This document shows, in pieces, positions 6,056 to 54,256 of a stretch of 64,000 bases of DNA (positions are counted from its first letter, which is position 1; every line of letters starts with the position of its first letter). Below the pieces are notes generated by a model that made no database searches, was not told the DNA's origin, and worked only from the letters and a program-made list of their open reading frames with translations. Source of the DNA: Heptranchias perlo (lineage: Eukaryota); NCBI RefSeq assembly GCF_035084215.1, contig NC_090348.1, positions 9,796,001 to 9,860,000 on the forward strand. Direction: 5' to 3'. The translations under genes were made by a program, and so were the position numbers.

Positions 6056-7184
6056 GATTCAATGTTTATTGTCCAATGGTTTAACAATTTTATGAATCTG
6101 CGGTTTCAAAGTTTGAAAAGTTTTGCACAAAGCACTGTATGTGGAGAAAGCCACAATAAAGGTTTAGCAAGATATGCCGAACTCCAGTGAGCATCTGTTT
6201 AGTTACTAGACTGTGAAACCACCAGATGCTAGAGGACTGGGCGTTCCAGAGCACATTAACTTTTAAAGGTGCACACATTATCCTTTACTTCCATCAGTTA
6301 TTCCAGGAATCTTTGACAGAGAAACCGTTGCCTTGATCTTATGGCCAGATGTGATATCATGAGCAGCATTGTCTTTTGGTTGGGGAAACTCTGAGGCAAC
6401 AGTGCTACTCTTTGAATTCCACGATATCTTCTACTACATTTTACACCAAGTATATAGGCCTGCCAGACTTCAGGACAAATCGTGCATCGCTTTAAAGATT
6501 GAAATGCTTTAATCTATACAGATTCTCAATGTAATCTTATTTGAAGATCACACTGGTCTCTCCAATTTCCATTCAGAACGACATTTGTCCCTCATCACCT
6601 TGGCAATGGCCTAAGTATCTGAATTAGGCCAACGTGGGTTATTGTGAATAACCCATTTTTTTTTGCTTTTGCCTTCTGAATTTGGCTTGGCATCCATACT
6701 CAGTACAATTGACACAGAAACAAGTATTTTTTCAGTAATTATAGCAGAGGAATTGTCGCCTTATATGGATTGCAATTAGCTGTATATGTGGCTTCCTTAA
6801 TGAGACATATAGAAGACAGTGCGAAAGAACACCTGGGACTCACGATCACCGATTTTCTCCATGGAAATGAATAATCCCTGGGGTCTTAACAGAGCCTTCA
6901 GAATCACTCCCGAATGCTGTGGCAGCTGCTAACTATTAGGAGCTAATTCACATATGCATGTTATTGTTTCTATTTTCCACTCATGTGAGTTATCACGTCA
7001 CTAGGAAATGAAAAAAAAATACAGCTCAATCGGCAAAGCCTCCCACTTCAACTGATTATTTTTTGTGGCTCTATAAACTTTTTCACTAGACTGGTTTCGG
7101 GAAGTGAATTCACCCCAATACGTAGACAAATCAGCTGTCACCTGGTTTCCTGGCTGTAGATTTTCTTTCTCTCTATTATAAAGA

Positions 7185-7598
7185 AAAGAAAGACAGACTT
7201 GCACTTATATAGCGCCTTTCATGACTTCAAGATGACTCAAAGCACTTTACAGCCAATTAAATACTTGAAGTGTAGTCACTGTTGTAATATAGGAAACGTG
7301 GCAGCCAATTTGCGCACAGCAAGGTCCCACAAACAGTCATGAGATAATGACCAGATAATCTGTTTTTAGTGATGTTGGCTGAGGGATAAATATTGGCCGG
7401 GACAACGGGGAGAACTCCCCTGCTCTTCTTCGAAATAGTTCCAATGGATCTTTTATGTCCACCTGAGAGGGCAGACAAGGCCTTGGTTTAATGTCTCATC
7501 CAAAAGACGGCACCTCCAACAGTGCAGCACTCCCTCAGTACTGCACTGGTGTGACGGCCTTAGATTTTGTGCTCAATTCTTTGCAGCAAGACTTGAAC
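7185..7598 (-). mobile_element. DeuSINE (SacSINE1-like), head truncated
   Basis: High similarity to the full-length copies at 43308 and 54257; L2-type tail CTTGCACTTATATAGCGCC. Confidence 0.85.
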
Positions 7599-8309
7599 GC
7601 ATCTGTGCTAAGACAGACATTTGCTGCCTTACTGCACACAAAGCAAAATCCCAAGTCATGGCCCCCACTTAGTTCCAGAAGATGTACCATTATACTAAAT
7701 GTCAGTATGAGCTAAAACGTCAGCACAGCTCACCGTCTCTCACTTGCTTTAACAGCCGGGGTTATAACATACCCTGGAAACATTTTCCATAAGCCTTTTG
7801 TTTTCTCTAGTTCACAAATCAGCTTGTGCAAACTTGTTAAGTAAGTTTGTGCAATGGAAAGTACAGCCCATACAATATTTCAAATGTGTGTGACCCTAAA
7901 ACTATGCACAATAAAATATATTGGCATATGTAGACCTTTGGTTTCAGTGCCAGTATTTTTAGAACTAAATTTAAACAGTCTGCTCCAGGCATACAGTATA
8001 AATGGGTTATTCTATTTTGTTTTCAGAAGGTTGAGTGTTGATTGTTGTGGAATATTTGCTGCCACTTTGATGTTACAATGCAGATCAGCAACAATATAAT
8101 GCAATGCCAGCAATGAATCACGAGAGACATCACTAGGACATGACACAGAGACTCAGCTGCTGACTTTGATGTCCCATTTTGATGTCTGTCTTCATGCTTG
8201 CTGCCTGATCAAAAAACTACAGTCTGAAGAAATTTATGAGTCAGGTTCACTTTATTGGACTCTTTTGGTGACACTAATTGGTAGCATCAAGGTTATGAAA
8301 GTTGGCCGT

Positions 8310-9970: not shown

Positions 9971-10015
9971 ACAAAACTTGGCTCATACATGGAGGCATAG
10001 ACAGCCATTGTTAAA

Positions 10016-10300
10016 GTAATGTAATGGTTATGATACTGGACTAACAACCCAGAGATCATGAATTCACAACTCCACCATGGCAAGTTACACAACATTTCGT
10101 CACTAATGTCATTCAGGACACTGCCACCTCTACCTGATCAAAGCGACATGTGACTCTAGTCCATCATACAAGGTTGACTCTTAACGCCCTCTGAAGTAGC
10201 CTAGCAAAAGCCACCCTGTTAAACATGTTATCGTTATTGACTAGTCAGACCCATTATCACCTTCGCTGGGCTACTAAATAAGGTCTTGTTATCATAGACC
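10016..10300 (+). mobile_element. Diverged copy of the tRNA-SINE family that hosts the satellite
   Basis: Head GTAATGTAATGGTTATGATACTGGACTA...CCACCATGGCA; body mirrors 15455-15790. Confidence 0.65.
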
Positions 10301-12450: not shown

Positions 12451-12645
12451 ATGTGGAGATGCCGGTGATGGACTGGGGTGGACAAATGTAAGGAGTCTTA
12501 CAACACCAGGTTATAGTCCAACAGCTTTATTTGGAATCACAAGCTTTCGGAGCTTTTCACCTGACGAAGGAGGAAAGCTCCGAAAGCTTGTAATTCCAAA
12601 TAAAGCTGTTGGACTATAACCTGGTGTTGTAAGACTCCTTACATT
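12451..12645. mobile_element. Miniature palindromic Penelope-like insertion (tail + inverted pLTR ends)
   Basis: ~73-bp inverted arms (12484-12556 and ~12574-12646). Left tail matches the reverse complement of 42661-42694 with 1 mismatch. TSD TTTCCTGTT(A/G)TT at 12439-12450 and 12646-12657. Confidence 0.9.
12557..12593 (+). ncRNA. Minimal type I hammerhead ribozyme motif
   Basis: TCAC-CTGACGA-A-GGAG gaaag CTCC-GAAA-GC-TT-GTAA: core CUGANGA/GAAA, stem II GGAG/CTCC, palindromic AAGCTT in place of stem III, one stem I mismatch. Confidence 0.75.
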
Positions 12646-12701
12646 TTTCCTGTTGTTGGCTGCCTTCTTTAAGAAGAATGCACAGAGGGAATGGTAACAT
12701 G

Positions 12702-15082
12702 GCGCCGGATTTTTAAACTCCACCCTTCCGACTCCCTCTGTAGCTTCCCTCCTGGGGAGGGAGGGCAGGTTCGTCATGACACTCTGCTTCTCCTTCCTCT
12801 CGTCCACATTACTGGTGAGCAAAATCCTGAGACCCTCGCGCCACTCCTTCTACTGAAAGTGACATGAGCTCAGCTGCTCAGGAAACCATTCTAATCTGCT
12901 TTTCCTCTTCTATATGTGGCCGAGTGAGAAGCAAGGGAAGAAGCAACAGGCCGCTCTGCATCAGCCCTGGCAACGCTTCAGAGCACACACCGTCACTCTT
13001 GCTCTCTCTCTCTCCTTCCCTCCCAAGCACCACTGCAGAGGCGTCAGCTCCAGGGGCATTAGAGAGTGAGGCAGAAGGGAATGCACGAGGTCAAACACAG
13101 AACATAAGAGAGCAGGAGTCACTGGGGGTGGAACATGAGAAAGAAGACAATGCTGACTGGAGGATCAGAGACATTGCCTCTTGATTGGGCAGCCTGGGAC
13201 CTAGATCTCAGAGACTTTTTAAATGGGTGCTTTGCAGAGCAACAAGCATATGCTACAGGAACTGGGACAGTATCCAACACTACTGCAGATGTCAAACCAA
13301 TTGAAGTCCACTGCTCACATCTGCAGTACCCCGAGGATAGCTTCCCAGAACTGCAGTTGACTGGACATATGGCAGCTCCAAGCCAATCTGCAGCAGAGGC
13401 CCCAAAGTCAAAGGTCCTGAGGCAGTATGTGCGTCCTCTACGGAAGCTCAGATTGTTGCCATAGAGGCCTGAGGTGCCCCATTGGACAAAGCTGCTTCTT
13501 CAGGCCTGGGATACCGACAAGAATTTCAGAGGGCTTCATTGACCTCATGGTACCATTAGGTTTGCTTTCCCGCAGATCAGTGGCCATGCAGAGCAGCACG
13601 CGATACAAGTATCGCAATAGGAATACGCTCACATAGTGATACCATCTCTCAGGATAGCAGCACGTATGCACCCTCCTGCCAACCCCCTCAGATGCCTGCA
13701 CATGTGGCAGGAAGGAGGCATGGCCAGGCCATCCATGCAGCAGTACTAGAGGTGCAGCCTGCAGCAGGTCCATCGAAGGACTTAGATGTTGTGAGACAAG
13801 GGCCACCCTAGGCCCAAGAGGCTCATATTGACCACAGTAGTCAGACACCTTGAGGGTGATTTTAAACCCCAAGGTCGGGTGGGTTGAGGGCGGGTGGGAG
13901 TTGAAAATAGTTGTTTTTTGGGTCGCAACCGCAACCCGGCTTTATTTCCGGGTTTAACGTCGGCGCATTGGGAATGCAATGTCGGAAAATTTTGCGGGTG
14001 TGATCCAAAAGAACAACTATTTTCAACTCCCACCCGCCCCCACCCCACCCGTTCTTGGGGTTTAAAATCACCCCCTACGTGTACTCCTGCCACTGGGTTA
14101 GCACCTAAGAGGAGCAATCGATTAGGGTTAGGAGTTCATACTTTGTACACGGGTGAAGCACAGTAGGAAGACACACCAGACACATTGTACACTATGGGTT
14201 TTTATGAAAATTATAGGTGCAGGTGTTCATGCAAACATTCTACTTGGTGAGGTTTGGAAGAGGCTCTCATCAAGTGTTTTGAATGGGAGCTGGTTGAGTT
14301 GATGCTCACGGAGAAGGTTCTGCAGATGATGGCAGATTAATGGTGTGAAGGGGAAGATGTACACCTGACTGTTCATGCAGTGGCCAAAGGTGGTGGCGAA
14401 AAGAAGCTCTCCTGTATCAGCATGGCAAAAATGTGCCTTGCAACCAGGAGAAGGTTGTTCTTCACATCATTATCAGGCTGCTGTTCCTCGGGCAAGGGCA
14501 GGTAGTAGTGCCTCCTTAGGTGTAGGGGTTCTGGAGGATAGATGCCATGTGTCTCTGGTGCAGCCTCACCTGCCTAGGCTCCCTCCATTCCTTCTCCTCT
14601 CTCTTCTTCCAAAAGCAAAGGAAGAGGGGAGTCCCCATTGGAAAGCCCATATTATGCACTGTCTGAAGGGAGGGAGGCAGCCCCATAGCAAATGGCAGAA
14701 GGGCAGATGGTAAAGTCATTGGCAAGAACAAAAAAAGACAAAAGAAAAAAAATCTAAATTACTACAGATATAATGATTGTGCAAAATTTTAAAATAATTG
14801 TGTTTAGCTCTTTAAATTACTTCCACCTTTTCATAGCACCATGATTATAAGCATGATTACTGCCAAGAGTAATTGAAGGAGTAATTACAGGAAATAGGAC
14901 ATATGACATCACCACTGCCTCATTTAAATACACCCACCATTCTAATGTGGGCATATCCACCAGAAAATGGTTGAAAATTGAGCAGATGCTCAAGTGGGCC
15001 CATAGATCCCTACCCTACTTCACATTCTCACCTGATGTAATGTCACCTGAAAATTGGCTGCTTTCACAAGAAAATCTAGGCA
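12702..15082. mobile_element. Possible heavily decayed Harbinger-like transposon
   Basis: GCCGGATTTT at the left and AAAATCTAGGC at the right resemble a TIR pair. GC-richer interior with no convincing transposase motif. Confidence 0.25.
13852..14075. mobile_element. Fold-back MITE (~85-bp inverted arms)
   Basis: GAGGGTGATTTTAAACCCCAAG..GGGCGGGTGGGAGTTGAAAATAGTTGTT is mirrored by AACAACTATTTTCAACTCCCACCCGCCC..CTTGGGGTTTAAAATCACCCCC. Confidence 0.85.
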
Positions 15083-15454
15083 TGGAGTTGAGAAAAAAAC
15101 ACTTCAATATTTACTCCAGACTGACAGCCCCGAGATTGATATCAGACACTTTTGTAAACACTAGCCTTCTGAGTTATCAACCTTAGACAGGAAAAATTCA
15201 ATTATCCTTAAATTAAATATATGGTGAAAGTGATTTAGGGTAAATTGCTTCTTTTACATCCAAACTTCAAAATGGGATATTGGTGCCCATGGGGTGGAAG
15301 GTTTATTTCTCGTTTTGTTTTGCTTGAATTGAAAAATTAGACAATAATGCAATCATCAAAATCAGATATTTATACATAGAAAATCAAATTTCAATCCATA
15401 GTCTCAGTTGGATCATTTATTTCTTTGCAATTTTTAAAAATATATATTTTTAAA

Positions 15455-15790
15455 ATTCATTCTTTGGGATGGCAAGCCTGGTATTTATTGCCCATCTCCT
15501 AGTTACCCTTGAATGGTTTGCTGCAGAGAGGATGGAAGACTCAACCACATTGGTGTGGGAGTGGAGAGTCACATGTAGACAAGACCAGATAAGGACAGCA
15601 GGTTTCCTTCCCTAAAGGATGTTTGTGAACCATTTGGGTTTTTACAACAATCTGACAACTTCATGGTCACTTTTACTGATACCAGCTTTTGATTTCCAGA
15701 TTTTTTAATCTGAATTCAAATTCTCAAACTGCCACGGTGGGATGTGAACTCATGTTCATGCTGGATTAGTAACCCAGGCCTGTGGATTCC
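15455..15790 (-). mobile_element. Body and tail of the tRNA-derived SINE whose head is expanded into the satellite
   Basis: B-box-like GTTCACATCC (rc of 15740-15749). The tail ATTCATTC..GGGAT..ATTTATTGCCCA..CCCTTGA is shared with the 3' end of the LINE at 3580-3660. Confidence 0.8.
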
Positions 15791-18700
15791 CAGTCCAGTA
15801 ACAGAACCACTACACTACACTAGTCCAGTAACAGAAACACGACACCAGTCCAGTAACAGAAACACTGCACTACACTAGTCCAGTAACAGAAACACTACAC
15901 TACACAAGTCCAGTAACAGAAACACTACACTAGTCCAGTAACAGAAACACTACACTACACTAGTCCAGTAACAGAAACACTACACTACACTAATCCAGTA
16001 ACAGAAACACTACACTAGTCCAGTAACAGAAACACGACACTAGTCCAGTAACAGAAACACTGCACTACACTAGTCCAGTAACAGAAACACGACACTACAC
16101 TAGTCCAGTAACAGAAACACGACACTAGTCCAGTAACAGAAACACTGCACTACACTAGTCCAGTAACAGAAACACTACACTACACTAGTCCAGTAACAGA
16201 AACACTACACTACACTAATCCAGTAACAGAAACACTGCACTACACTAGTCCAGTAACAGAAACACTGCACTACACTAGTCCAGTAACAGAAACACTACAC
16301 TACACTAGTCCAGTAACAGAAACACTACACTACACTAGTCCAGTAACAGAAACACTACACTACACTAGTCCAGTAACAGAAACACTACACTACACTAGTC
16401 CAGTAACAGAAACACTGCACTACACTAGTCCAGTAACAGAAACACGACACTAGTCCAGTAACAGAAACACTGCACTACACTAGTCCAGTAACAGAAACAC
16501 GACACTAGTCCAGTAACAGAAACACTGCACTACACTAGTCCAGTAACAGAAACACGACACTAGTCCAGTAACAGAAACACTGCACTACACTAGTCCAGTA
16601 ACAGAAACACTGCGCTACACTAGTCCAGTAACAGAAACACTACACTACACTAGTCCAGTAACAGAAACACGACACTACACTAGTCCAGTAACAGAAACAC
16701 GACACTAGTCCAGTAACAGAAACACTGCACTACACTAGTCCAGTAACAGAAACACGACACTAGTCCAGTAACAGAAACACTGCACTACACTAGTCCAGTA
16801 ACAGAAACACGACACTAGTCCAGTAACAGAAACACTGCACTACACTAGTCCAGTAACAGAAACACTGCGCTACACTAGTCCAGTAACAGAAACACTACAC
16901 TACACTAGTCCAGTAACAGAAACACTGCACTACACTAGTCCAGTAACAGAAACACTGCACTACACTAGTCCAGTAACAGAAACACGACACTAGTCCAGTA
17001 ACAGAAACACTACACTACACTAATCCAGTAACAGAAACACTACACTACACTAGTCCAGTAACAGAAACACTGCGCTACACTAGTCCAGTAACAGAAACAC
17101 TACACTACACTAGTCCAGTAACAGAAACACGACACTAGTCCAGTAACAGAAACACTACACTACACTAATCCAGTAATAGAAACACTGCACTACACTAATC
17201 CAGTAATAGAAACACTGCACTACACTAGTCCAGTAACAGAAACACGACACTAATCCAGTAACAGAAACACTACACTACACTAATCCAGTAATAGAAACAC
17301 TGCACTACACTAGTCCAGTAACAGAAACACTGCACTACACTAGTCCAGTAACAGAAACACGACACTAGTCCAGTAACAGAAACACTGCACTACACTAGTC
17401 CAGTAACAGAAACACTGCGCTACACTAATCCAGTAACAGAAACACTACACTACACTAGTCCAGTAACAGAAACACTGCGCTACACTAGTCCAGTAACAGA
17501 AACACTACACTACACTAGTCCAGTAACAGAAACACGACACTAGTCCAGTAACAGAAACACTGCACTACACTAGTCCAGTAACAGAAACACTGCACTACAC
17601 TAGTCCAGTAACAGAAACACGACACTAGTCCAGTAACAGAAACACTGCACTACACTAGTCCAGTAACAGAAACACTGCGCTACACTAATCCAGTAACAGA
17701 AACACTACACTACACTAGTCCAGTAACAGAAACACTGCGCTACACTAGTCCAGTAATAGAAACACTGCACTACACTAGTCCAGTAACAGAAACACTACAC
17801 TACACTAATCCAGTAACAGAAACACTACACTACACTAGTCCAGTAACAGAAACACTGCACTACACTAATCCAGTAACAGAAACACTACACTACACTAGTC
17901 CAGTAACAGAAACACTGCGCTACACTAGTCCAGTAACAGAAACACTACACTACACTAATCCAGTAACAGAAACACTACACTACACTAGTCCAGTAACAGA
18001 AACACTGCGCTACACTAGTCCAGTAACAGAAACACTACACTACACTAATCCAGTAACAGAAACACTACACTACACTAGTCCAGTAACAGAAACACTGCAC
18101 TACACTAGTCCAGTAACAGAAACACTACACTACACTAATCCAGTAACAGAAACACTACACTACACTAGTCCAGTAACAGAAACACTGCGCTACACTAGTC
18201 CAGTAACAGAAACACTACACTACACTAATCCAGTAACAGAAACACTGCACTACACTAGTCCAGTAACAGAAACACTACACTACACTAATCCAGTAACAGA
18301 AACACTACACGACACTAATCCAGTAACAGAAACACTGCACTACACTAGTCCAGTAACAGAAACACTACACTACACTAGTCCAGTAACAGAACCACTACAC
18401 TAATCCAGTAACAGAAACACTGCACGACACTAGTCCAGTAACAGAAACACTGCGCTACACTAGTCCAGTAACAGAAACACTACACTACACTAATCCAGTA
18501 ACAGAAACACTACACTACACTAATCCAGTAATAGAAACACTGCACTACACTAATCCAGTAACAGAAACACTGCACTACACTAGTCCAGTAACAGAAACAC
18601 TACACTACACTAATCCAGTAACAGAAACACTACACTACACTAATCCAGTAACAGAAACACTACACTACACTAATCCAGTAACAGAAACACTACACTAGTC

Positions 18701-21700
18701 CAGTAACAGAAACACTACACTACACTAGTCCAGTAACAGAACCACTACACTAATCCAGTAACAGAAACACCACACTACACTAATCCAGTAACAGAAACAC
18801 TACACTACACTAGTCCAGTAACAGAACCACTACACTAATCCAGTAACAGAAACACTACACTACACTAATCCAGTAACAGAAACACTACACTACACTAGTC
18901 CAGTAACAGAACCACTACACTAATCCAGTAACAGAAACACTACACTACACTAATCCAGCAACAGAAACACTGCACTACACTAATCCAGTAACAGAAACAC
19001 TGCACTACACGAGTCCAGTAACAGAACCACTACACTAATCCAGTAACAGAAACACTGCACTACACTAGTCCAGTAACAGAAACACTACACTACACTAGTC
19101 CAGTAACAGAACCACTACACTAATCCAGTAACAGAAACACTGCACGACACTAGTCCAGTAACAGAAACACTGCGCTACACTAGTCCAGTAACAGAAACAC
19201 TACACTACACTAATCCAGTAACAGAAACACTACACTACACTAATCCAGTAATAGAAACACTGCACTACACTAATCCAGTAACAGAAACACTGCACTACAC
19301 TAGTCCAGTAACAGAAACACTGCACTAATCCAGTAACAGAAACACTGCACTACACTAATCCAGTAACAGAAACACTGCGCTACACTAGTCCAGTAACAGA
19401 AACACTGCACTACACTAATCCAGTAACAGAAACACTACACTACACTAATCCAGTAACAGAAACACTACACTACACGAGTCCAATAACAGAAACACTGCAC
19501 TACACTAGTCCAGTAACAGAAACACTACACTACACTAATCCAGTAACAGAAACACTGCACTACACTAGACCAGTAACAGAAACACTGCACTACACTAATC
19601 CAGTAACAGAAACACTGCACTACACTAGTCCAGTAACAGAAACACTGCACTACACTAATCCAGTAACAGAAACACTGCACTACACTAGTCCAGTAACAGA
19701 AACACTGCACTACACTAATCCAGTAACAGAAACACTGCACTACACTAGACCAGTAACAGAAACACTGCACTACACTAATCCAGTAACAGAAACACTGCAC
19801 TACACTAGTCCAGTAACAGAAACACTGCACTACACTAATCCAGTAACAGAAACACTGCACTACACTAGTCCAGTAACAGAAACACTGCACTACACTAATC
19901 CAGTAACAGAAACACTACACTACACTAATCCAGTAACAGAAACACTGCACTACACTAGTCCAGTAACAGAAACACTGCACTACACTAATCCAGTAACAGA
20001 AACACTGCACTACACTAATCCAGTAACAGAAACACTGCACTACACTAGACCAGTAACAGAAACACTGCACTACACTAATCCAGTAACAGAAACACTGCAC
20101 TACACTAGTCCAGTAACAGAAACACTGCACTACACTAATCCAGTAACAGAAACACTGCACTACACTAATCCAGTAACAGAAACACTACACTACACTAGTC
20201 CAGTAACAGAAACACTACACTACACTAGTCCAGTAACAGAAACACTGCACTACACTAATCCAGTAACAGAAACACTGCACTACACTAATCCAGTAACAGA
20301 AACACTACACTACACTAGTCCAGTAACAGAAACACTACACTACACTAGTCCAGTAACAGAAACACTACACTACACTAATCCAGTAACAGAAACACTACAC
20401 TACACTAGTCCAGTAACAGAAACACTGCACTACACTAATCCAGTAACAGAAACACTGCACTACACTAGTCCAGTAATAGAAACACTACACTACACTAGTC
20501 CAGTAACAGAAACACTACACTACACTAGTCCAGTAACAGAAACACTGCACTACACTAATCCAGTAACAGAAACACTGCACTACACTAGTCCAGTAATAGA
20601 AACACTACACTACACTAGTCCAGTAACAGAAACACTACACTACACTAGTCCAGTAACAGAAACACTACACTACACTAATCCAGTAACAGAAACACTACAC
20701 TACACTAGTCCAGTAACAGAAACACTGCACTACACTAGTCCAGTAACAGAAACACTACACTACACTAGTCCAGTAACAGAAACACTACACTACACTAGTC
20801 CAGTAACAGAAACACTACACTACACTAATCCAGTAACAGAAACACTACACTACACTAGTCCAGTAACAGAAACACTGCACTACACTAATCCAGTAACAGA
20901 AACACTGCACTACACTAATCCAGTAACAGAAACACTACACTACACTAATCCAGTAACAGAAACACTACACTACACTAGTCCAGTAACAGAAACACTGCAC
21001 TACACTAGTCCAGTAACAGAAACACTACACTACACTAATCCAGTAATAGAAACACTGCACTACACTAATCCAGTAACAGAAACACTGCACTACACTAATC
21101 CAGTAACAGAAACACTGCACTACACTAGTCCAGTAACAGAAACACTGCACTACACTAATCCAGTAACAGAAACACTGCACTACACTAATCCAGTAACAGA
21201 AACACTGCACGACACTAGTCCAGTAACAGAAACACTACACTACACTAATCCAGTAACAGAAACACTACACTACACTAGTCCAGTAACAGAAACACTGCAC
21301 TACACTAATCCAGTAACAGAAACACTACACTACACTAATCCAGTAACAGAAACACTACACTACACTAGTCCAGTAACAGAAACACTGCACTACACTAATC
21401 CAGTAACAGAAACACTGCACTACACTAGTCCAGTAACAGAAACACTACACTACACTAATCCAGTAATAGAAACACTACACTACACTAATCCAGTAACAGA
21501 AACACTGCACTACACTAATCCAGTAACAGAAACACTGCACTACACTAGTCCAGTAACAGAAACACTGCACTACACTAATCCAGTAACAGAAACACTGCAC
21601 TACACTAATCCAGTAACAGAAACACTGCACGACACTAGTCCAGTAACAGAAACACTACACTACACTAATCCAGTAACAGAAACACTACACTACACTAGTC

Positions 21701-24700
21701 CAGTAACAGAAACACTACACTACACTAATCCAGTAACAGAAACACTACACTACACTAGTCCAGTAACAGAAACACTGCACTACACTAGTCCAGTAACAGA
21801 AACACTACACTACACTAATCCAGTAATAGAAACACTACACTACACTAGTCCAGTAACAGAAACACTACACTACACTAATCCAGTAATAGAAACACTGCAC
21901 TACACTAATCCAGTAATCGAAACACTACACTACACTAGTCCAGTAACAGAAACACTACACTACACTAATCCAGTAATAGAAACACTGCACTACACTAATC
22001 CAGTAACAGAAACACTGCACTACACTAATCCAGTAACAGAAACACTACACTACACTAATCCAGTAATAGAAACACTACACTACACTAATCCAGTAACAGA
22101 AACACTACACTACACTAATCCAGCAATAGAAACACTACACTACACTAATCCAGTAATAGAAACACTACACTACAGTAGTCCAGTAACAGAACCACTGCAC
22201 TACACTAGTCCAGTTACAGAAACACTGCACTACACTAGTCCAGTAACAGAAACACTACACTACACTAGTCCAGTAACAGAAACACTACACTACACTAATC
22301 CAGTAACAGAAACACTACACTACACTAATCCAGTAACAGAAACACTGCACTACACTAATCCAGTAATAGAAACACTACACTACACGAGTCCAGTAACAGA
22401 AACACTGCACTACACTAATCCAGTAATAGAAACACTGCACTACACTAGTCCAGTAACAGAAACACTACACTACACTAGTCCAGTAACAGAAACACTGCAC
22501 TACACTAGACCAGTAACAGAACCACTACACTACACTAATCCAGTAATAGAAACACTGCACTACACTAGTCCAGTAACAGAAACACTGCACTACACTAGTC
22601 CAGTAACAGAAACACTACACTACACTAATCCAGTAATAGAAACACTGCACTACACTAGTCCAGTAACAGAAACACTACACTACACTAGTCCAGTAATAGA
22701 AACACTGCACTACACTAATCCAGTAACAGAAACACTACACTACACTAGTCCAGTAATAGAACCACTATGCTACACTAGTCCAGTAACAGAAACACTACAC
22801 TACACTAATCCAGTAACAGAAACACTGCACTACACTAATCCAGTAATAGAAACACTACACTACACTAGTCCAGTAACAGAACCACTACACTACACTAATC
22901 CAGTAACAGAAACACTACACTACACTAGTCCAGTAACAGAAACACTACACTACACTAATCCAGTAACAGAACCACTACACTACACTAGTCCAGTAACAGA
23001 ACCACTACACTACACTAATCCAGTAACAGAAACACTACACTACACTAATCCAGTAACAGAACCACTACACTACACTAGTCCAGTAACAGAACCACTACAC
23101 TACACTAATCCAGTAATAGAAACACTGCACTACACTAGTCCAGTAACAGAAACACTGCACTACACTAATCCAGTAACAGAACCGCTACACTACACTAGTC
23201 CAGTAATAGAAACACTGCACTACACTAATCCAGTAACAGAACCGCTACACTACACTAGTCCAGTAACAGAACCACTACACTACACTAGTCCAGTAACAGA
23301 ACCACTACACTAGTCCAGTAATAGAAACACTGCACTACACTAATCCAGTAACAGAACCACTACACGACACTAGTCCAGTAACAGAACCACTACACTACAC
23401 TAATCCAGTAATAGAAACACTGCACTACACTAGTCCAGTAACAGAAACACTGCACTACACTAATCCAGTAACAGAAACACTACACTACACTAATCCAGTA
23501 ATAGAAACACTGCACTACACTAATCCAGTAACAGAAACACTACACTACACTAGTCCAGTAACAGAAACACTGCACTACACTAATCCAGTAACAGAAACAC
23601 TGCACTACACTAATCCAGTAAAAGAAACACGACACTACACTAGTCCAGTAACAGAAACACTGAACTACACTAGTCCAGTAACAGAAACACTGCACTACAC
23701 TAATCCAGTAATAGAAACACTGCACTACACTAGTCCAGTAACAGAAACACTGAACTACACTAGTCCAGTAACAGAAACACTGCACTACACTAGTCCAGTA
23801 ACAGAAACACTGAACTACACTAGTCCAGTAACAGAAACACTACACTACACTAGTCCAGTAACAGAAACACTACACTACACTAGTCCAGTAATAGAAACAC
23901 TACACTACACTAGTCCAGTAATAGAAACACTACACTACACTAGTCCAGTAACAGAAACACTACACTACACTAATCCAGTAACAGAAACACTACACTACAC
24001 TAGTCCAGTAACAGAAACACTACACTACACTAATGCAGTTACAGAAACACTGCACTACACTAATCCAGTAATAGAAACACTACACTACACTAGTCCAGTA
24101 ACAGAAACACTGCACTACACTAATCCAGTAACAGAAACACTACACTACACTAATCCAGTAACAGAAACACTGCACTACACTAATCCAGTAACAGAAACAC
24201 TACACTACACTTATCCAGTAACAGAAACACTGCACTACACTAATCCAGTAACAGAAACACTGCACTACACTAATCCAGTAACAGAAACACTACACTACAC
24301 TAATCCAGTAACAGAAACACTACACTACACTAGTCCAGTAACAGAAGCACTACACTACACTAATCCAGTAATAGAAACACTACACTACACTAATCCAGTA
24401 ACAGAAACACTGCACTACACTAATCCAGTAACAGAAACACTACACTACACTAATCCAGGAACAGAAACACTACACTACACTAGTCCAGTAATAGAAACAC
24501 TGCACTACACTAATCCAGTAACAGAAACACTGCACTACACTAATCCAGTAACAGAAACACTACACTACACTAGTCCAGTAATAGAAACACTGCACTACAC
24601 TAATCCAGTAACAGAAACACTACACTACACTAATCCAGTAACAGAAACACTACACTACACTAATCCAGTAACAGAAACACTGCACTACACTAATCCAGTA

Positions 24701-27700
24701 ACAGAAACACTACACTACACTAGTCCAGTAACAGAAACACTGCACTACACTAATCCAGTAACAGAAACACTACACTACACTAATCCAGTAACAGAAACAC
24801 TGCACTACACTAATCCAGTAACAGAAACACTACACTACACTAATCCAGTAACAGAAACACTGCACAACACTAATCCAGTAACAGAAACACTGCACTACAC
24901 TAGTCCAGTAACAGAAACACTGCACAACACTAGTCCAGTAACAGAAACACTGCACTACACTAGTCCAGTAACAGAAACACTACACTACACTAGTCCAGTA
25001 ACAGAAACACTGCACTACACTAATCCAGTAATAGAAACACTGCACTACACTAGTCCAGTAACAGAAACACTGCACTACACTAGTCCAGTAACAGAAACAC
25101 TGCGCTACACTAATCCAGTAACAGAAACACTGCACAACACTAGACCAGTAACAGAAACACTACACTACACTAGTCCAGTAACAGAAACACTGCACTACAC
25201 TAATCCAGTAACAGAAACACTGCACTACACTAATCCAGTAATAGAAACACTGCACTACACTAATCCAGTAATAGAAACACTGCACTACACTAATCCAGTA
25301 ACAGAAACACTGCACTACACTAATCCAGTAACAGAAACACTGCACTACACTAGTCCAGTAACAGAAACACTGCACAACACTAGTCCAGTAACAGAAACAC
25401 TGCGCTACACTAATCCAGTAACAGAAACACTGCACTACACTAATCCAGTAACAGAAACACTGCACAACACTAGTCCAGTAACAGAAACACTACACTACAC
25501 TAGTCCAGTAACAGAAACACTGCACTACACTAATCCAGTAACAGAAACACTACACTACACTAATCCAGTAACAGAAACACTACACTACACTAATCCAGTA
25601 ACAGAAACACTACACTACACTAATCCAGTAACAGAAACACTACACTACACTAATCCAGTAACAGAAACACTGCACTACACTAATCCAGTAACAGAAACAC
25701 TGCACAACACTAGTCCAGTAACAGAAACACTACACTACACTAGTCCAGTAACAGAAACACTGCACTACACTAGTCCAGTAACAGAAACACTGCACTACAC
25801 TAGTCCAGTAACAGAAACACTGCACTACACTAGTCCAGTAACAGAAACACTACACTACACTAGTCCAGTAACAGAACCACTATGCTACACTAGTCCAGTA
25901 ACAGAACCACTATGCTACACTAGTCCAGTAACAGAACCACTATGCTACACTAGACCAGTAACAGAACCACTACACTACACTAGTCCAGTAACAGAACCAC
26001 TACACTACACTAGTCCAGTAACAGAACCACTACACTACACTAATCCAGTAACAGAAACACTGCACTACACTAATCCAGTAACAGAACCGCTACACTACAC
26101 TAGTCCAGTAACAGAAACACTACACTACACTAGTCCAGTAACAGAAACACTGCACTACACTAATCCAGTAACAGAACCACTACACGACACTAGTCCAGTA
26201 ACAGAACCACTACACTACACTAATCCAGTAATAGAAACACTGCACTACACTAGTCCAGTAACAGAAACACTGCACTACACTAATCCAGTAACAGAAACAC
26301 TACACTACACTAATCCAGTAATAGAAACACTGCACTACACTAATCCAGTAACAGAAACACTACACTACACTAGTCCAGTAACAGAAACACTGCACTACAC
26401 TAATCCAGTAACAGAAACACTGCACTACACTAATCCAGTAAAAGAAACACGACACTACACTAGTCCAGTAACAGAAACACTGAACTACACTAGTCCAGTA
26501 ACAGAAACACTGCACTACACTAATCCAGTAATAGAAACACTGCACTACACTAGTCCAGTAACAGAAACACTGAACTACACTAGTCCAGTAACAGAAACAC
26601 TGAACTACACTAGTCCAGTAACAGAAACACTACACTACACTAATCCAGTAACAGAAACACTACACTACACTAGTCCAGTAACAGAAACACTACACTACAC
26701 TAGTCCAGTAATAGAAACACTACACTACACTAGTCCAGTAATAGAAACACTACACTACACTAGTCCAGTAACAGAAACACTACACTACACTAATCCAGTA
26801 ACAGAAACACTACACTACACTAGTCCAGTAACAGAAACACTACACTACACTAATGCAGTTACAGAAACACTGCACTACACTAATCCAGTAATAGAAACAC
26901 TACACTACACTAGTCCAGTAACAGAAACACTGCACTACACTAATCCAGTAACAGAAACACTACACTACACTAATCCAGTAACAGAAACACTGCACTACAC
27001 TAATCCAGTAACAGAAACACTACACTACACTTATCCAGTAACAGAAACACTGCACTACACTAATCCAGTAACAGAAACACTGCACTACACTAATCCAGTA
27101 ACAGAAACACTACACTACACTAATCCAGTAACAGAAACACTACACTACACTAGTCCAGTAACAGAAGCACTACACTACACTAATCCAGTAATAGAAACAC
27201 TACACTACACTAATCCAGTAACAGAAACACTGCACTACACTAATCCAGTAACAGAAACACTACACTACACTAATCCAGGAACAGAAACACTACACTACAC
27301 TAGTCCAGTAATAGAAACACTGCACTACACTAATCCAGTAACAGAAACACTGCACTACACTAATCCAGTAACAGAAACACTACACTACACTAGTCCAGTA
27401 ATAGAAACACTGCACTACACTAATCCAGTAACAGAAACACTACACTACACTAATCCAGTAACAGAAACACTACACTACACTAATCCAGTAACAGAAACAC
27501 TACACTACACTAATCCAGTAACAGAAACACTGCACTACACTAATCCAGTAACAGAAACACTACACTACACTAGTCCAGTAACAGAAACACTGCACTACAC
27601 TAATCCAGTAACAGAAACACTACACTACACTAATCCAGTAACAGAAACACTGCACTACACTAATCCAGTAACAGAAACACTACACTACACTAATCCAGTA

Positions 27701-30700
27701 ACAGAAACACTGCACAACACTAATCCAGTAACAGAAACACTGCACTACACTAGTCCAGTAACAGAAACACTGCACAACACTAGTCCAGTAACAGAAACAC
27801 TGCACTACACTAGTCCAGTAACAGAAACACTACACTACACTAGTCCAGTAACAGAAACACTGCACTACACTAATCCAGTAATAGAAACACTGCACTACAC
27901 TAGTCCAGTAACAGAAACACTGCACTACACTAGTCCAGTAACAGAAACACTGCGCTACACTAATCCAGTAACAGAAACACTGCACAACACTAGACCAGTA
28001 ACAGAAACACTACACTACACTAGTCCAGTAACAGAAACACTGCACTACACTAATCCAGTAACAGAAACACTGCACTACACTAATCCAGTAATAGAAACAC
28101 TGCACTACACTAATCCAGTAATAGAAACACTGCACTACACTAATCCAGTAACAGAAACACTGCACTACACTAATCCAGTAACAGAAACACTGCACTACAC
28201 TAGTCCAGTAACAGAAACACTGCACAACACTAGTCCAGTAACAGAAACACTGCGCTACACTAATCCAGTAACAGAAACACTGCACTACACTAATCCAGTA
28301 ACAGAAACACTGCACAACACTAGTCCAGTAACAGAAACACTACACTACACTAGTCCAGTAACAGAAACACTGCACTACACTAATCCAGTAACAGAAACAC
28401 TACACTACACTAATCCAGTAACAGAAACACTACACTACACTAATCCAGTAACAGAAACACTACACTACACTAATCCAGTAACAGAAACACTACACTACAC
28501 TAATCCAGTAACAGAAACACTGCACTACACTAATCCAGTAACAGAAACACTGCACAACACTAGTCCAGTAACAGAAACACTACACTACACTAGTCCAGTA
28601 ACAGAAACACTGCACTACACTAGTCCAGTAACAGAAACACTACACTACACTAGTCCAGTAACAGAAACACTGCACTACACTAGTCCAGTAACAGAAACAC
28701 TGCACTACACTAGTCCAGTAACAGAAACACTACACTACACTAGTCCAGTAACAGAACCACTATGCTACACTAGTCCAGTAACAGAACCACTATGCTACAC
28801 TAGACCAGTAACAGAACCACTACACTACACTAGTCCAGTAACAGAACCACTACACTACACTAGTCCAGTAACAGAACCACTACACTACACTAATCCAGTA
28901 ACAGAAACACTGCACTACACTAATCCAGTAACAGAACCGCTACACTACACTAGTCCAGTAACAGAAACACTACACTACACTAGTCCAGTAACAGAAACAC
29001 TGCACTACACTAATCCAGTAACAGAACCGCTACACTACACTAGTCCAGTAACAGAAACACTGCACTACACTAATCCAGTAACAGAAACACTGCACTACAC
29101 TAGTCCAGTAACAGAAACACTGCACTACACTAATCCAGTAACAGAACCGCTACACTACACTAATCCAGTAACAGAAACACTGCACTACACTAATCCAGTA
29201 ACAGAAACACTGCACTACACTAGTCCAGTAATAGAAACACTGCACTACACTAATCCAGTAACAGAACCGCTACACTACACTCGTCCAGTAACAGAAACAC
29301 TACACTACACTAGTCCAGTAACAGAAACACTACACTACACTAATCCAGTAACAGAAACACTGCACTACACTAGTCCAGTAACAGAAACACTACACTACAC
29401 TAGTCCAGTAACAGAAACACTGCACTACACTAATCCAGTAACAGAACCGCTACACTACACTAATCCAGTAACAGAAACACTGCACTACACTAATCCAGTA
29501 ACAGAAACACTGCACTACACTAGACCAGTAACAGAAACACTGCACTACACTAATCCAGTAACAGAAACACTGCACTACACTAGTCCAGTAACAGAAACAC
29601 TACACTACACTAGTCCAGTAATAGAAACACTGCACTACACTAATCCAGTAACAGAAACACTACACTGCACTAGTCCAGTAACAGAAACACTACACTACAC
29701 TAGTCCAGTAACAGAACCACTACACTACACTAATCCAGTAACAGAACCACTACACTACACTAATCCAGTAACAGAACCACTACACTACACTAATCCAGTA
29801 ACAGAACCACTACACTACACTAATCCAGTAATAGAAACACTACACTACACTAGTCCAGTAATAGAAACACTACACTACACTAGACCAGTAACAGAACCAC
29901 TACACTACACTAATCCAGTAACAGAACCACTACACTACACTAATCCAGTAATAGAAACACTACACTACACTAATCCAGTAACAGAAACACTGCACTACAC
30001 TAATCCAGTAACAGAACCACTACACTACACTAATCCAGTAATAGAAACACTACACTACACTAGTCCAGTAATAGAAACACTACACTACACTAGACCAGTA
30101 ACAGAACCACTACACTACACTAATCCAGTAACAGAACCACTACACTACACTAATCCAGTAATAGAAACACTACACTACACTAATCCAGTAACAGAAACAC
30201 TGCACTACACTAATCCAGTAATAGAAACACTACACTACACTAATCCAGTAACAGAACCACTACACTACACTAGACCAGTAAGAGAACCACTACACTACAC
30301 TAGTCCAGTAACAGAACCACTACACTACACTAGTCCAGTAACAGAACCACTACACTACACTAGTCCAGTAAGAGAAACACTGCACTACACTAGACCAGTA
30401 ACAGAACCACTACACTACACTAGTCCAGTAAGAGAAACACTGCACTACACTAGACCAGTAACAGAACCACTACACTACACTAGACCAGTAACAGAACCAC
30501 TATGCTACACTAGTCCAGTAAGAGAAACACTACACTACACTAGACCAGTAACAGAACCACTGCACTACACTAGTCCAGTAACAGAACCACTGCACTACAC
30601 TAGACCAGTAACAGAACCGCTACACTACACTAGACCAGTAACAGAACCACTACACTACACTAGACCAGTAACAGAACCACTACACTACACTAGTCCAGTA

Positions 30701-31228
30701 ACAGAACCACTACACTACACTAGACCAGTAACAGAACCGCTACACTACACTAGACCAGTAACAGAACCACTACACTACACTAGACCAGTAACAGAACCAC
30801 TACACTACACTAGACCAGTAACAGAACCACTACACTACACTAGTCCAGTAACAGAACCACTACACTACACTAGACCAGTAACAGAACCACTACACTACAC
30901 TAGTCCAGTAACAGAACCACTACACTACACTAGACCAGTAACAGAACCACTACACTACACTAATCCAGTAACAGAACCACTACACTACACTAGTCCAGTA
31001 ACAGAACCACTACACTACACTAGTCCAGTAACAGAACCACTACACTACACTAATCCAGTAACAGAACCACTACACTACACTAGTCCAGTAACAGAACCAC
31101 TACACTACACTAGACCAGTAACAGAAACACTACACTACACTAGTCCAGTAATAGAACCACTACACTACACTAGTCCAGTAACAGAACCACTACACTACAC
31201 TAGTCCAGTAACAGAACCACTACACTAC
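15791..31228. repeat. ~15.4 kb tandem array of a 30-bp unit TA(G/A)TCCAGTAACAGAA(A/C)CACT(A/G)CACTACAC, roughly 520 copies
   Basis: Directly visible. 25-bp deletion variants occur mainly at 15.8-19.3 kb plus one at ~23290; fixed 30-bp phase from 23311 to the end. Confidence 0.99.
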
Positions 31229-31709
31229 CATCCTACCTGCGTATGAAGCCACCCCTCCAACCAACTTCCTCATTCAGCATTTTCCAAAAAGGCTTCAAAA
31301 TTCTCTTCTGTTCCTCCAGTCATCACTGATCCTGGTGAGCTGCTCTCTCCACTCTCACTGTGTTGACCAATTGGTTCACCCATGTCCGTATTACTGGCAC
31401 TTCCCTGCCCCTTCTGTACTGGAATAGTTAGCTGCTTTCTCCCTTTAACCAGAATATATATACTGTCCCAGAACTTGTAGTACTATCACTTAGCTCATAT
31501 CTTGTTCTATCATAACTAGATTGTATTTCTCATCGTTGGATAATTATGTGCCATAATATAAGACTGAGTGTCTATATAACATGTGCACCAAATCAGCTCC
31601 GGCTCACCACATCTCCAACAAGTGTCTAGAAAGATACTTTCTGCCAGAAACAATTATGAGGGTTAAAGTGAATGGAATTACAGTGTACTTGCATGTAGCA
31701 TGCAAATAT

Positions 31710-31985
31710 CATCCATGGCTCAGTAGTAGCACTCTTGCCTGAGTCAGAATGTCAGAAGATAAAAGATCCCACGGCACTATTTCGAAGAAGAGCAGGGGAG
31801 TTCTCCCCAGTGTCCCGGCCAACATTTATCCCTCAACCAACATCGCCTAAAACAGATTATCTGGTCATTATCACATTGCTGTTTGTGGGACCTTGCTGTG
31901 CGCAAATTGGCTGCCATATTTTCTAGATTACAACAATACTACACTTCAAAAAGTACTTCATTGGCAGTTCTCTCTTTATCTTTCT
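31710..31985 (+). mobile_element. DeuSINE (SacSINE1-like) with internal deletion
   Basis: Head CCATGGCTCAGTAGTAGCACTCTTGCCTGAGTCAGAA joins directly to TAAAAGATCCCACGGCACTATT, skipping the B-box region present in 54257-54715. Confidence 0.8.
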
Positions 31986-32952: not shown

Positions 32953-33733
32953 GGGCTCAATTTTAAAACCGAGCCAGGAAGGGGATCAAATTGAGGACGG
33001 GAAACCCATTAGTACGGGTTTTCCAGACGTTCTTATGATTTTGACGTAAGGACGTCTTTTATTTTGTTTTTGTCGGTTTCCTGCCCGACTGACCGGCCTG
33101 ATTGACAGATTGGTCTCAGTCAGACGGGAGACTAGCCAGGGAGAGGACGTCTGCAGGGAAGTCTTTGTTGTATGGATGGGGGGGGGGGGGCATGGGGGCA
33201 TGGGTTGGCACGGGGTCGTGAGTCATGGAGTGGAAGGATCGGGATCGGAGGATCGGGGTGGGGGGGGTGGATCGGGGTCGGGGGTCGGAGGATCGGGGTC
33301 GCAGGCTCCGTGATTGGGGGGGAGTTCCGCGATCAGGGGTCGGGTGTCCGCAATCGTTTGGGGGTCAGTGCAGGTAGGCTTGTTGGGCCTGGGGGAAGCA
33401 ATCCTGCTCCTCCAGGCCCACAAGCAGTGCCTTTCTAGGCACCTACCTGTTAGTCTCGGGCCTTCTTGCCTCCTTTCACGAGGTGTAAAACAGAAGGCCC
33501 GGGAATCCCGGCCCCCCGGGGTTGAAATCGGGAACTCCAGAAAAACGGAGGCCCGAAGCCTCCTTGAAAGGTTTTAAGGCCCGACCTGCCTCCTGGGAGC
33601 GGGTTGGTCACCTGTCCCTCTTCCTGCCCCGGTGAAAACCAGAAATGGGCGGGTTGGAGGCGGGTCTGAAATGGTGGCAATTTTCATTGCCCCACCCCCA
33701 ACCCACCCAATTTTTACTTTGAAAATTGAGCCC
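32953..33733. mobile_element. GC-rich PIF/Harbinger-like MITE
   Basis: Perfect 12-bp TIRs GGGCTCAATTTT / AAAATTGAGCCC; flanks CAT/TAT (3-bp TSD with 1 mismatch); internal GATCGGG G-rich repeats. Confidence 0.8.
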
Positions 33734-36721: not shown

Positions 36722-37315
36722 AACAACAACTTGCATTTATATAGCACCTTTAACATAGAAAATGCACCAGAAGGCATTTCACAGGGGCATAATCAAAAGA
36801 TGGACATCGAGTGACCAAAAGAGTTGGGTTTTACGGAGGGTGTTGAAGGAGGAGAGGGAGGTGGAAAGGTTGAAGAATTGAGGGTGGAAATTCCAGAGTT
36901 TGGGGACTAGGAAGTTGACGGCCAATGGTGGGCTAAAGGGGGGAGAGGACGAATGCAAGAGGCCAGAGTCAGAGGAGCAGAGTGTAGGGGTCGAGGAGGT
37001 TACAGAGATAAGGAGAAGCACAGCCATGAAGGGATTTAAACACAAAGATGAGAATTTTAAATTTGAGGCATTGGGGGACTGGGAGCCATTATAGGTCAAC
37101 GAGGACAGGGTTGATGGGTGAGTGAGACTTGGTTTAGGATAGGACATGGGCAGCACAGTTTTGGATGAGCTGAAATTTATGGAGCATGGGAGGCCAGCCA
37201 GGAGAGCATTGGCATAGTCAAGTCTGAAGGTGACATGGATGAGGGATTCAGCAGCAGCTGGGCTGAGATAAGAGCAGAGGGGGGTGGTTACAGAGGTGAA
37301 AGTCAGCAGTCTTCA
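36722..37315 (-). mobile_element. L2 LINE 3' fragment
   Basis: Tail CTTGCATTTATATAGCACC; purine-rich L2 body, colinear with 56780-57560. Confidence 0.8.
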
Positions 37316-38700: not shown

Positions 38701-39955
38701 TAAAAATAAAACGACCAGCTTTAACAAACTGTAAACAATTAAAGGTTCCATTTTACAATTTGTTCAGAAGCCCCCTTCGGACTAAGGGGAGTGAGGGAGA
38801 ATCATTATGCTGCAAGAAAGTACAATTACAGCCCACTAAAGAGAATTTTCCCAACTGTGTTCTCCCAGCTCTTTGCTTTGACATCCTAATAGAAGTCAAT
38901 AGTTACAAATGGATTTGTTAATGTTATGATAAAGGCAGCAGAGAATGGTTGCACCATCACTACCATCTCTGTCTGAGCACTCTCCTGCCTTGAGGTCATT
39001 CATGTACTTTTGTCAAGAGTGCATCTGAATACCATATACCTCACAATTAATGTTCCCAGCAGTATGACTTGAGAGCGAACACAGATGTCACATTCCTAGA
39101 AATTTCCACACCCATCGAACAGATAAACGTATCACTGTTCTCCTGTCCCTGTGCTAGATCAAAACAGAGCAACATAGCTTTTTGTGACTAAGGAGGAAAA
39201 CAGAAAAGAAGTGACAAGATACGACAGAAGAACTGTTAATCCAAACTACGACACTACACAAAAATAAAAAGCTCCATCTGTACTTTATAATCGTGGTACA
39301 CAATCTACTAAAGCAACATATTCAGCTTGTAACTCCCTGTCTACTCAGAACAGGGATGCAAGAATTGTTACAAAAGGGAGGTCAGGACTGTTTAAAACTG
39401 CTACAGTACCAAACTAAAGGAAGTGCTGATATCCAGGGGCTTTTCTTCACTCTTATAGCCCTGACTCAGAGCAAGTACCAGAGCTAACACCAAGTATATT
39501 ACAACAAATAGCTAGCCACTGTTTTGCTTTGACATGATCTGTTGAGTTAGAGGCCATATTTCCTACTGTATGGTAAATTTAGTGGCAGGAGATATGCACT
39601 TCCAGTAGAAAGCACCAAGTCCGTGTTTAACAATGCTCCAAGGATTACCCATTCAAAATGGTAAATGAACAGAAGCTGGATGAAAATGCAGTTGTGTGCT
39701 TGTTGAGACCTTGTTCAAGGCCGATCATGGAAAAAACTTCTGCAAAGTTACATATGGTGGCAGAAAATCAAAGAATTAACTTCAGGTCAGGGGTAACATC
39801 AGTGATCTTAACAAGTAGGAGGAATATTTCGGGCCTGTTACAGTTCACAGCCAATTAAATTTATGTCTATGGAGAGCACGATCTCCCTCCCTAAGCAATA
39901 TAAATTGTAAACAATTTTACAACACCAAGTTATAGTCCAGCAATTTTATTTTAAA

Positions 39956-39994
39956 TTCACAAGCTTTCGGAGGCTTCCTCCTTCGTCAGGTGAA
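39956..39994 (-). ncRNA. Minimal hammerhead ribozyme motif in the PLE 3' region
   Basis: Exact reverse complement of 42570-42608. Confidence 0.8.
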
Positions 39995-40230
39995 CGATGT
40001 GAAAATGAAATCCTCGAAATGAAATCGCATTTATAATTCACAGAACAATGCTTGGTGATAACAGACAGTTTTTTCAACTGCCCGTTGCCAAGGCAATCAG
40101 TGTGCAGACAGACAGGTGTTACCTGCCAGGTCTCACAGAATATACAAATCACCAAAAAAAAAACAACAAACAAAAAAAAACAGAAATAGAGAGGTAGAAA
40201 CATAGAAAAGACAGCAACTGACCCGTTATA

Positions 40231-42028: not shown

Positions 42029-42038
42029 GACGATGGCT

Positions 42039-42333
42039 CATTGGCGAGACCATGCAGACGCTGCGACAACGGATGAACGGACACCGCGCAACAATCGCCA
42101 AAGAGGAGGGTTCCTTCCCAGTCGGGGAACACTTCAGCAGTCATGGACATTCATCCACCGACCTTCGGGTAAGCGTACTCCAAGGCGGCCTTCGAGACAC
42201 ACGACAACGCAAAATCGTCGAGCAGAAATTGATAGCCAAGTTCCGCACCCATGAGGACGGCCTCAACCGGGATCTTGGGTTCATGTCACGCTACACGTTA
42301 CCCCACCAGCGAACAAATGTTATCTGTTTTTAA
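42039..42333 (+). pseudogene. Duplicated C-terminal half of the GIY-YIG domain in the inverted arm
   Basis: IGETMQTLRQRMNGHR...DGLNRDLGFMSRY, nearly identical to the C-terminus of the main ORF. Confidence 0.9.
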
Positions 42334-42569
42334 TATAACGGGTCAGTTGCTGTCTTTTCTATGTTTCTACCTCTCTATTTCTGTTTTTTTTTGTTTGTTG
42401 TTTTTTTTTTGGTGATTTGTATATTCTGTGAGACCTGGCAGGTAACACCTGTCTGTCTGCACACTGATTGCCTTGGCAACGGGCAGTTGAAAAAACTGTC
42501 TGTTATCACCAAGCATTGTTCTGTGAATTATAAATGCGATTTCATTTCGAGGATTTCATTTTCACATCG

Positions 42570-42608
42570 TTCACCTGACGAAGGAGGAAGCCTCCGAAAG
42601 CTTGTGAA
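42570..42608 (+). ncRNA. Minimal hammerhead ribozyme motif
   Basis: TTCAC-CTGACGA-A-GGAGG aag CCTCC-GAAA-GC-TT-GTGAA: stem I TTCAC/GTGAA, stem II GGAGG/CCTCC, palindromic AAGCTT. Confidence 0.8.
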
Positions 42609-54183: not shown

Positions 54184-54256
54184 GAGGCATCAAACCTGGG
54201 GTACAGAGAACCCAAACCTCATTTTAAATGGATAGAGAGCAAGCATTCTCCCTATA

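Follow-up and report, generated by a model that had tools for sequence, protein, structure and literature searches.

Long arrays of very short tandem units raise two questions: from which sequence the unit was derived, and whether the array serves any function. Both questions apply to a 15.4-kb array in the shark Heptranchias perlo, which was analyzed here within a continuous stretch of 64,000 nucleotides (hereafter, the window). Its unit carries an A box, a promoter motif of RNA polymerase III (Pol III), and long open reading frames cross it, such that both a promoter and a protein might be suspected. We show herein that the array is flanked by SINE sequence at both of its edges, and argue that it is very probably a SINE-derived minisatellite born in situ, and most likely a neutral one, its neutrality being deduced from the absence of signal.

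Results

Structure of the array

When the 64-kb window was scanned with TRF, the array was placed at positions 15792 to 31228, with a period of 30, 518.9 copies, 92% matches, 1% indels, and a score of 24791. Parsing of the array, which is read on the minus strand, on a core shared by its units yielded 518 complete units plus a partial one at the terminus (~519 units, 15.4 kb). The 30-bp form accounts for 492 of the 518 and the 25-bp form for the other 26, and no other length occurs; two apparent 60-mers are pairs of 30-mers with a mutated core. As only these two lengths are found, the entire 15.4 kb is devoid of single-base indels. The 492 30-mers are 95.2% identical to their own consensus, with variation mostly at four or five sites. 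The array thus has the makeup of a minisatellite, i.e., short units, 60 distinct unit strings, and interspersed variants.

The observed/expected ratio of CpG was 0.12 in the array versus 0.39 in its flanks, a deficit that stems from the unit's own sequence and hence carries no weight as evidence of methylation. All four array segments that were folded gave unremarkable values relative to shuffled sequences (z from +0.29 to -1.36). Expansion driven by hairpins was rejected, since these segments and two SINE heads fold no better than shuffles (z from -1.36 to +0.49). No telomere dimer was found in the 64-kb window.

The array lies inside a SINE

At its left edge, the array passes without a break into a non-repetitive element, the head of which matches positions 3 to 108 of the window at 91 of 108 nucleotides (E 2e-27), with a score of 143 against a maximum of 34 for shuffled sequences. 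At its right edge, positions 31199 to 31230 are identical to positions 79 to 110 at 30 of 32 nucleotides, and only ~6 nt of SINE head lie beyond the array; the probable 5' end of the host SINE (the acceptor-stem strand) was placed by alignment with the sister head at 31229 to 31234 on the minus strand, within a few bases. The terminal 25 nt of the array match the head of an unexpanded copy (copy 1, positions 85 to 109) at 23 of 25 nucleotides, the best match outside the array, and that of a more-distant copy (copy 3, positions 10015 to 10039) at 20 of 25, where the best unrelated background is 18 of 25. The presence of SINE sequence at both edges supports birth of the array inside a SINE.

An earlier note on this DNA had proposed that the array is continuous with a SINE body on its left, that it ends as the unexpanded head at 81 to 110 does, and that it represents a tandem amplification of the A-box-bearing head inside a SINE; the edge matches, the TRF result, and the 23 of 25 identities bear out all three proposals. 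The note's description of the unit as the A-box/D-arm region is correct for these two parts and has to be widened, as the unit extends beyond the A box and the remainder of the D arm into the anticodon arm, of which it contains the 5' half. The copy at 81 to 110 cannot be taken for the progenitor. Position 10 of the unit is G in all 492 30-mers and T in both copies 1 and 3, from which it follows that the units share one ancestor and that the copy at 81 to 110 is a sister. Judging from the two sisters compared, this G may mark a subfamily and not the host copy alone.

On the minus strand, the host SINE can be followed leftward from the proximal consensus A box (unit 0; 15807 to 15817), through two tandem anticodon-like arms (15761 to 15798), a B-box-like motif (15739 to 15751), and a body (15513 to 15738), to a 3' tail (15455 to 15512) that is common to the 3' end of a LINE and is succeeded by T runs at 15455 and 15440. 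The two arms reflect an older duplication of ~22 bp, common to copy 1 (copy 3 has one arm), and the SINE head has duplicated short segments at least twice. Positions 15712 to 15818 match copy 1, and the body weakly matches that of copy 3 (32 of 43 nucleotides; 3 of 1000 shuffles were as good). Within the tail, positions 15470 to 15512 agree with LINE positions 3616 to 3657 at 34 of 43 nucleotides, a level reached by none of 1000 shuffles (blastn E 0.002). The T runs after the tail could terminate Pol III transcription. A perfect A/T palindrome of 24 nt is found at 15432 to 15455, immediately past the tail.

Without the array, the host element measures ~370 bp and is non-coding, and two further copies are present in the 64 kb. 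Being short, non-coding, and dispersed, with a tail shared with a LINE, it was classified as a SINE. A tRNA origin of its head is likely, albeit weakly supported: the Rfam tRNA model was the top match for copies 1 and 3 and the second for the host (14.1, 15.7, and 12.8 bits, respectively; E 0.64 to 3.5), none of which reaches the gathering score of 29; in a scan of the wider host region (15400 to 15900), no tRNA match was listed. A tRNA or other RNA gene was rejected for the entire window, since ARAGORN, and Rfam at its gathering threshold, returned none across the 64 kb. No target-site duplication of the host SINE was found, the longest string common to both flanks being 6 nt and lying inside the SINE tail. 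Such duplications are often absent for some LINE partners. That both flanks of the array came from one SINE insertion is likely from their sequences, and falls short of proof given the missing duplication and the shortness of the head at the right.

Sister copies, the candidate partner, and other elements in the window

Copy 1 (1 to 114, minus strand) is an unexpanded sister head cut by the window start, and copy 3 (10010 to 10290, plus strand; match E 0.006) is more diverged and internally deleted, with a single anticodon arm. A profile search of the window found no SINE copies beyond its four training sequences, for which the search was circular. The candidate partner is a broken LINE at 3576 to 5340 on the minus strand, the 3' end of which matches the SINE tail. 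It is recognizable by reverse transcriptase (RT) fragments with Pfam RT domains, and its longer relatives carry an AP-type endonuclease; the fragment at 4693 to 4980 has named matches in Mobula, Scyliorhinus, and Heptranchias.

A second, commoner SINE-like family, which presumably resembles the Deu-domain SacSINE1, has ten copies in the window, 67 to 90% alike (1180 to 1506, 7165 to 7601, 31759 to 31968, 43305 to 43769, 44182 to 44522, 49451 to 49582, 52484 to 52745, 53281 to 53704, 54256 to 54741, and 58187 to 58516). TRF detected no tandem expansion in any of the ten. A frame of 177 codons at 36779 to 37312 (minus strand) has no Pfam match and looks by eye like the 3' fragment of a LINE, and positions 36722 to 36823 match 585 to 688 within the window. 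An element at 39903 to 42661, which we take to be Penelope-like from its RT and GIY-YIG domains, carries a 639-aa open frame (40231 to 42150, minus strand) flanked on either side by an inverted arm of 629 bp, the two arms being 99% complementary. The best matches of this RT frame are from Heptranchias perlo (92 to 97%), followed by Scyliorhinus, Mustelus, and Chiloscyllium, and its 94% identity to Heptranchias proteins indicates a young element. A near-perfect hairpin at 12480 to 12650, with 83-nt arms 5 nt apart, resembles the ends of the Penelope-like element. Two GC-rich segments resemble non-autonomous DNA transposons, one at 32953 to 33733 (16-nt inverted repeats 749 nt apart) and the other at 13845 to 14082 (78-nt inverted repeats 82 nt apart).

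As to host genes, Pfam was compared with 161 of the 209 stop-to-stop frames of at least 62 aa that remain once the array, the LINE, and the Penelope-like element are set aside, a scan which short exons would escape; three weak matches were obtained, all below their cut-offs.

Origin and turnover of the unit

The sister head contains the tetranucleotide TAGT three times, at offsets 13, 18, and 38. Slippage from the first to the third would produce precisely the 25-mer, to which the addition of a single pentamer gives the 30-mer. Since the 30-mer can also be read as one uninterrupted stretch in that head, it might also have originated in a single step. The TAGT repeats agree with the model, described in a section of a review (PMC6947457), in which minisatellites originate at short flanking repeats. 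Among the observations against the explanation preferred here, two concern this step: the seeding repeat is 4 bp, versus the 5 to 10 bp of that model, and the host body now reads differently at the spot of the seeding TAGT.

The 25-mers fall into several variant types, which suggests repeated switching between 25 and 30 bp, and 25 of the 26 lie within the first 122 units. At position 13, both terminal units are ancestral and 420 of the 492 30-mers are derived; 37 of the 77 ancestral-type units are in the last 50 units, and one is in the first 50. Differences between paired units rise from ~1.7 for neighbors to 2.0 at long range.

These features can be accommodated in the following scheme. A tRNA-headed SINE would have been inserted by a LINE, with which it shares its tail and which presumably mobilized it. 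The array would then have been founded by slippage over 25 bp, from one TAGT to another 25 nt away, with a pentamer added afterwards; alternatively, a contiguous 30-bp segment could have been copied all at once. TAGT repeats and units of both lengths are present today, and the order of events given here is a proposal. Growth and turnover of the array would be due to slippage together with unequal exchange or conversion; variants would have spread locally, switches between 25 and 30 bp recurred, and blocks of up to 2.8 kb been duplicated, which would account for the patterns observed. Interior units would meanwhile have drifted from the A-box consensus, both terminal units keeping the A box.

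Block duplication, assembly, and recurrence

Alignment of the units revealed a block of ~2.8 kb present twice, at 23345 to 26045 (units 256 to 346) and at 26165 to 28895 (units 350 to 441). The two copies differ by 4 nt in 2670 aligned, all in two adjacent units, and by three whole-unit gaps. Nine unit variants, each with two copies, are repeated at a lag of 94 to 95. A higher-order repeat was rejected, as only lags 94 to 95 stand out (identity 0.18 to 0.20 versus at most 0.157 elsewhere), owing to this single duplication. The block may stem from an unequal exchange of very recent date, or else two alleles were joined in tandem during assembly. If the latter were true, the real length of the array would be ~12.6 kb; the near-identity of the blocks and the nine recurring variants speak for it. 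Nonetheless, a recent unequal exchange would look alike, the 518 units are without single-base indels, and the array has regional gradients of variants and ancestral-type ends, so we regard a tandem placement of alleles as rather unlikely. That the array as a whole is an artefact is very unlikely.

A broader alternative is that this is one locus of a multi-locus family, either because the SINE head expands recurrently or because an older array was copied in. It is compatible with a minisatellite of SINE origin if each locus arose in place. The seeding TAGT repeats sit in the family head itself, the head already contains the older anticodon-arm duplication, and there are multi-locus or family-level precedents in the portions cited of PMC10702118 (snake sSat3) and PMC6947457 (mouse B1 arrays). 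However, both other copies in the window are unexpanded, and protein searches revealed no matching repeat, although they had little power on this point, as a stop interrupts the sole open frame in the sister heads. On balance, we consider a multi-locus family possible, if less likely than not. Distinctly less probable, and offered as a speculation, is a joint reading of several features. According to it, the shark SINE head would be a recurrent expansion hotspot that has seeded dispersed kilobase A-box minisatellites across shark genomes. The subfamily-fixed anticodon-arm duplication would be an early stage of the same slippage, disseminated by retrotransposition, and all 88 promoter-side units would lack the GG of the A box owing to selection on, or a change in, the choice of Pol III start site. 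If the head is such a hotspot, it would offer a genome-wide natural series of arrays with the ancestor still attached.

Promoter elements

The consensus of the A box is TRGYNNARNGG, and B-box motifs are GTTCRnnnC and GTTCRAnnC. The earlier note had also reported a B-box-like motif, and one does start at 15749 on the minus strand; it fits the first B-box motif and fails the second by one mismatch, the equivalent of A58 being C. It retains the equivalents of G53, C56, C61, and C62 (numbering mapped in this analysis), the positions of the base contacts of TFIIIC in the B box being taken from part of PMC11724288. As the reported contact bases are kept, one ordinary SINE promoter, and at most one, may survive, to judge from its motifs. 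The same note's picture of a single B box with ~520 promoter half-sites piled up upstream of it does not hold: strict A boxes number only 76 among the ~519 units (79 with the motif given in PMC11724288), and 443 of the 518 complete units lack one, mostly through a GG-to-GT change. A further 669 minus-strand 11-mers, in two registers per unit, have one mismatch at the final G, and weak A-box-like sequence is thus abundant. Strict A boxes are absent from units 1 to 88, the next one past unit 0 being in unit 89 (~18380). Spacings between A and B boxes in nature are stated to be 31 to 93 bp (PMC11724288, in part). Measured from the B box, the distances are 55 nt for unit 0, 85 nt for the degenerate unit 1, and ~2.6 kb for unit 89; only units 0 and 1, and hence 1 of the 76 strict A boxes, are inside this range. 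No B box was found within the array on either strand, and the array does not have the layout of a multimeric type 2 promoter, in which each unit would have a B box 31 to 93 bp from its A box. Only two T4 runs occur on the minus strand of the array, which argues against the units being separate transcription units.

Could the array nonetheless recruit TFIIIC or Pol III as a stack of A boxes, or act as a boundary or source of small RNA? In favor are its 76 strict and 669 one-mismatch motifs, all on the minus strand, and the distance of 55 nt that separates the proximal A box from a B box with a single mismatch. In cryo-EM, tauA shifted to some extent to a second A-box-like motif, and a longer transcript was obtained at <10% (PMC11724288), and architectural roles of TFIIIC at extra sites have been described (bioRxiv 2020.04.17.046805), as far as the excerpted text of these sources goes. 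On the contrary, the strict motif is missing from most units and from the whole promoter-side run of 88, no B box accompanies the array, and T4 runs are nearly absent. In the yeast in vitro experiments excerpted from PMC11724288, moreover, the B box was bound with nanomolar and the A box with micromolar affinity, A-only DNA nearly abolished TFIIIC binding, and an upstream pseudo-A-box was unable to substitute. Pol III starts 12 to 20 nt upstream of the A box (bioRxiv 2020.04.17.046805, in part), which puts the array upstream of the transcript, with no more than ~1 unit transcribed. Provided that the yeast promoter data apply to the shark locus, as we infer, a SINE transcript would hold at most about one array unit. 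We therefore consider a functional A-box stack highly improbable.

Coding potential

A further possibility is that the plus strand is a coding exon for a Thr/Pro-rich, mucin-like protein of decapeptide repeats. Stop-to-stop frames of 1333 and 2649 aa, no stop in the open plus-strand frame of any of the 492 30-mers, and a Pfam match to Extensin_1 (145 bits; cut-off 105) favor this reading. The frame is nonetheless shifted by the 26 25-mers, chance alone would account for the missing stops (P ~0.39), and there is no excess of synonymous changes (6 of 28 distinct substitutions versus 23 of 90 possible; p 0.76). No real homologue emerged, as identity was at most 57% in the best 150 of 549 profile matches, of which best 150 four share short motifs and are other repeats. 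A protein word search with the array repeat gave two candidates and no match. The Extensin_1 match is best read as compositional. On these grounds, i.e., frame shifts, a chance-level lack of stops, no synonymous excess, and no homologue, the coding exon was rejected as exceedingly improbable, and a neutral minisatellite of SINE origin remains the preferred reading. The frame of 2649 codons, stop-free from 23297 to 31246 (plus strand), consists of the repeat only and is a trap for gene predictors.

Discussion

Our results have a practical side, in that arrays of this kind give spurious multi-thousand-residue "mucin-like" open reading frames, of which annotators should be warned. They also offer a single window that contains the parent element of the array, two relatives that have not expanded, and the candidate LINE partner, so that the history of the array can be read unit by unit. 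We found neither an earlier report of a SINE-derived satellite in a shark nor a name for the host SINE family in the open-licence literature. In the part of PMC5499810 consulted, CmiSINE and SacSINE1 are described as carrying L2 tails.

The closest counterparts are the SINE-derived satellites sSat1-3, described from 56 squamate genomes with units of ~70 to 290 nt (Vassetzky et al. 2023, PMC10702118; cited here and below from excerpts). Single sSat loci contain 320, about 950, or more than 1200 monomers; similarity is 94% in the one with 320. As in these satellites, the units of the shark array are tandem and come from part of a SINE, tRNA-headed in squamates and probably so in the shark, and the terminal units run into the SINE termini, in sSats sometimes at both ends (PMC10702118). 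Where an sSat unit is to be part of a SINE and shorter than it, the shark unit matches the sister head at 23 of 25 nucleotides; where at least four homogeneous middle monomers are looked for, there are 518, 95.2% identical to the consensus; and the terminal units reach the body and tail on the left and ~6 nt of head on the right. Some sSat units also cover the head, i.e., the B box in snakes and the 5' or tRNA part in geckos (PMC10702118). Unlike them, the shark unit has an A box and no B box, belongs to another SINE family, and measures 25 or 30 nt versus ~70 to 290 nt, a range that is descriptive and outside the definition in PMC10702118. The existence of such satellites outside squamates is called uncertain in the excerpted text of that paper, and the present locus provides a clear case in a shark.

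Tandem arrays with a tRNA-like promoter are also known from amphibians (PolIII/TAN, OAX/satellite I, Rana/polIII, and Hy/polIII). These differ in that their units are 200 to 360 nt, one family can be transcribed in vitro, and a parent SINE is unproven, whereas the shark array consists of a promoter fragment without a B box and is still attached to its parent SINE (PMC10702118, in part). The left edge of the array is like a Pol III type 2 promoter, in that a single A box is separated by 55 nt from a single B-box-like motif. Unlike such a promoter or extra TFIIIC sites, the array adds only A-box-like motifs, and binding is reported to depend on the B box (PMC11724288, in part). SINE-derived satellites and minisatellites are, in sum, already known from reptiles, mouse, and human, and the shark locus reveals no new mechanism.

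In unit size, the array is closer to the minisatellites of mammals. The Alu and B1 elements that gave rise to these are 7SL-derived, unlike the tRNA-like head of the shark element. Alu- and B1-derived minisatellites have been described by Jurka and Gentles (2006), Bois et al. (1998), and Ahmed and Liang (2012), and 2663 human minisatellites are associated with Alu, according to passages of two reviews (PMC6947457 and PMC9659126). As proposed for the shark, their short units are born in a SINE at short direct repeats, and they expand by slippage, conversion, or unequal crossing-over (PMC6947457, in part). The locus described here thus combines the layout of squamate sSats with a unit the size of a minisatellite's.
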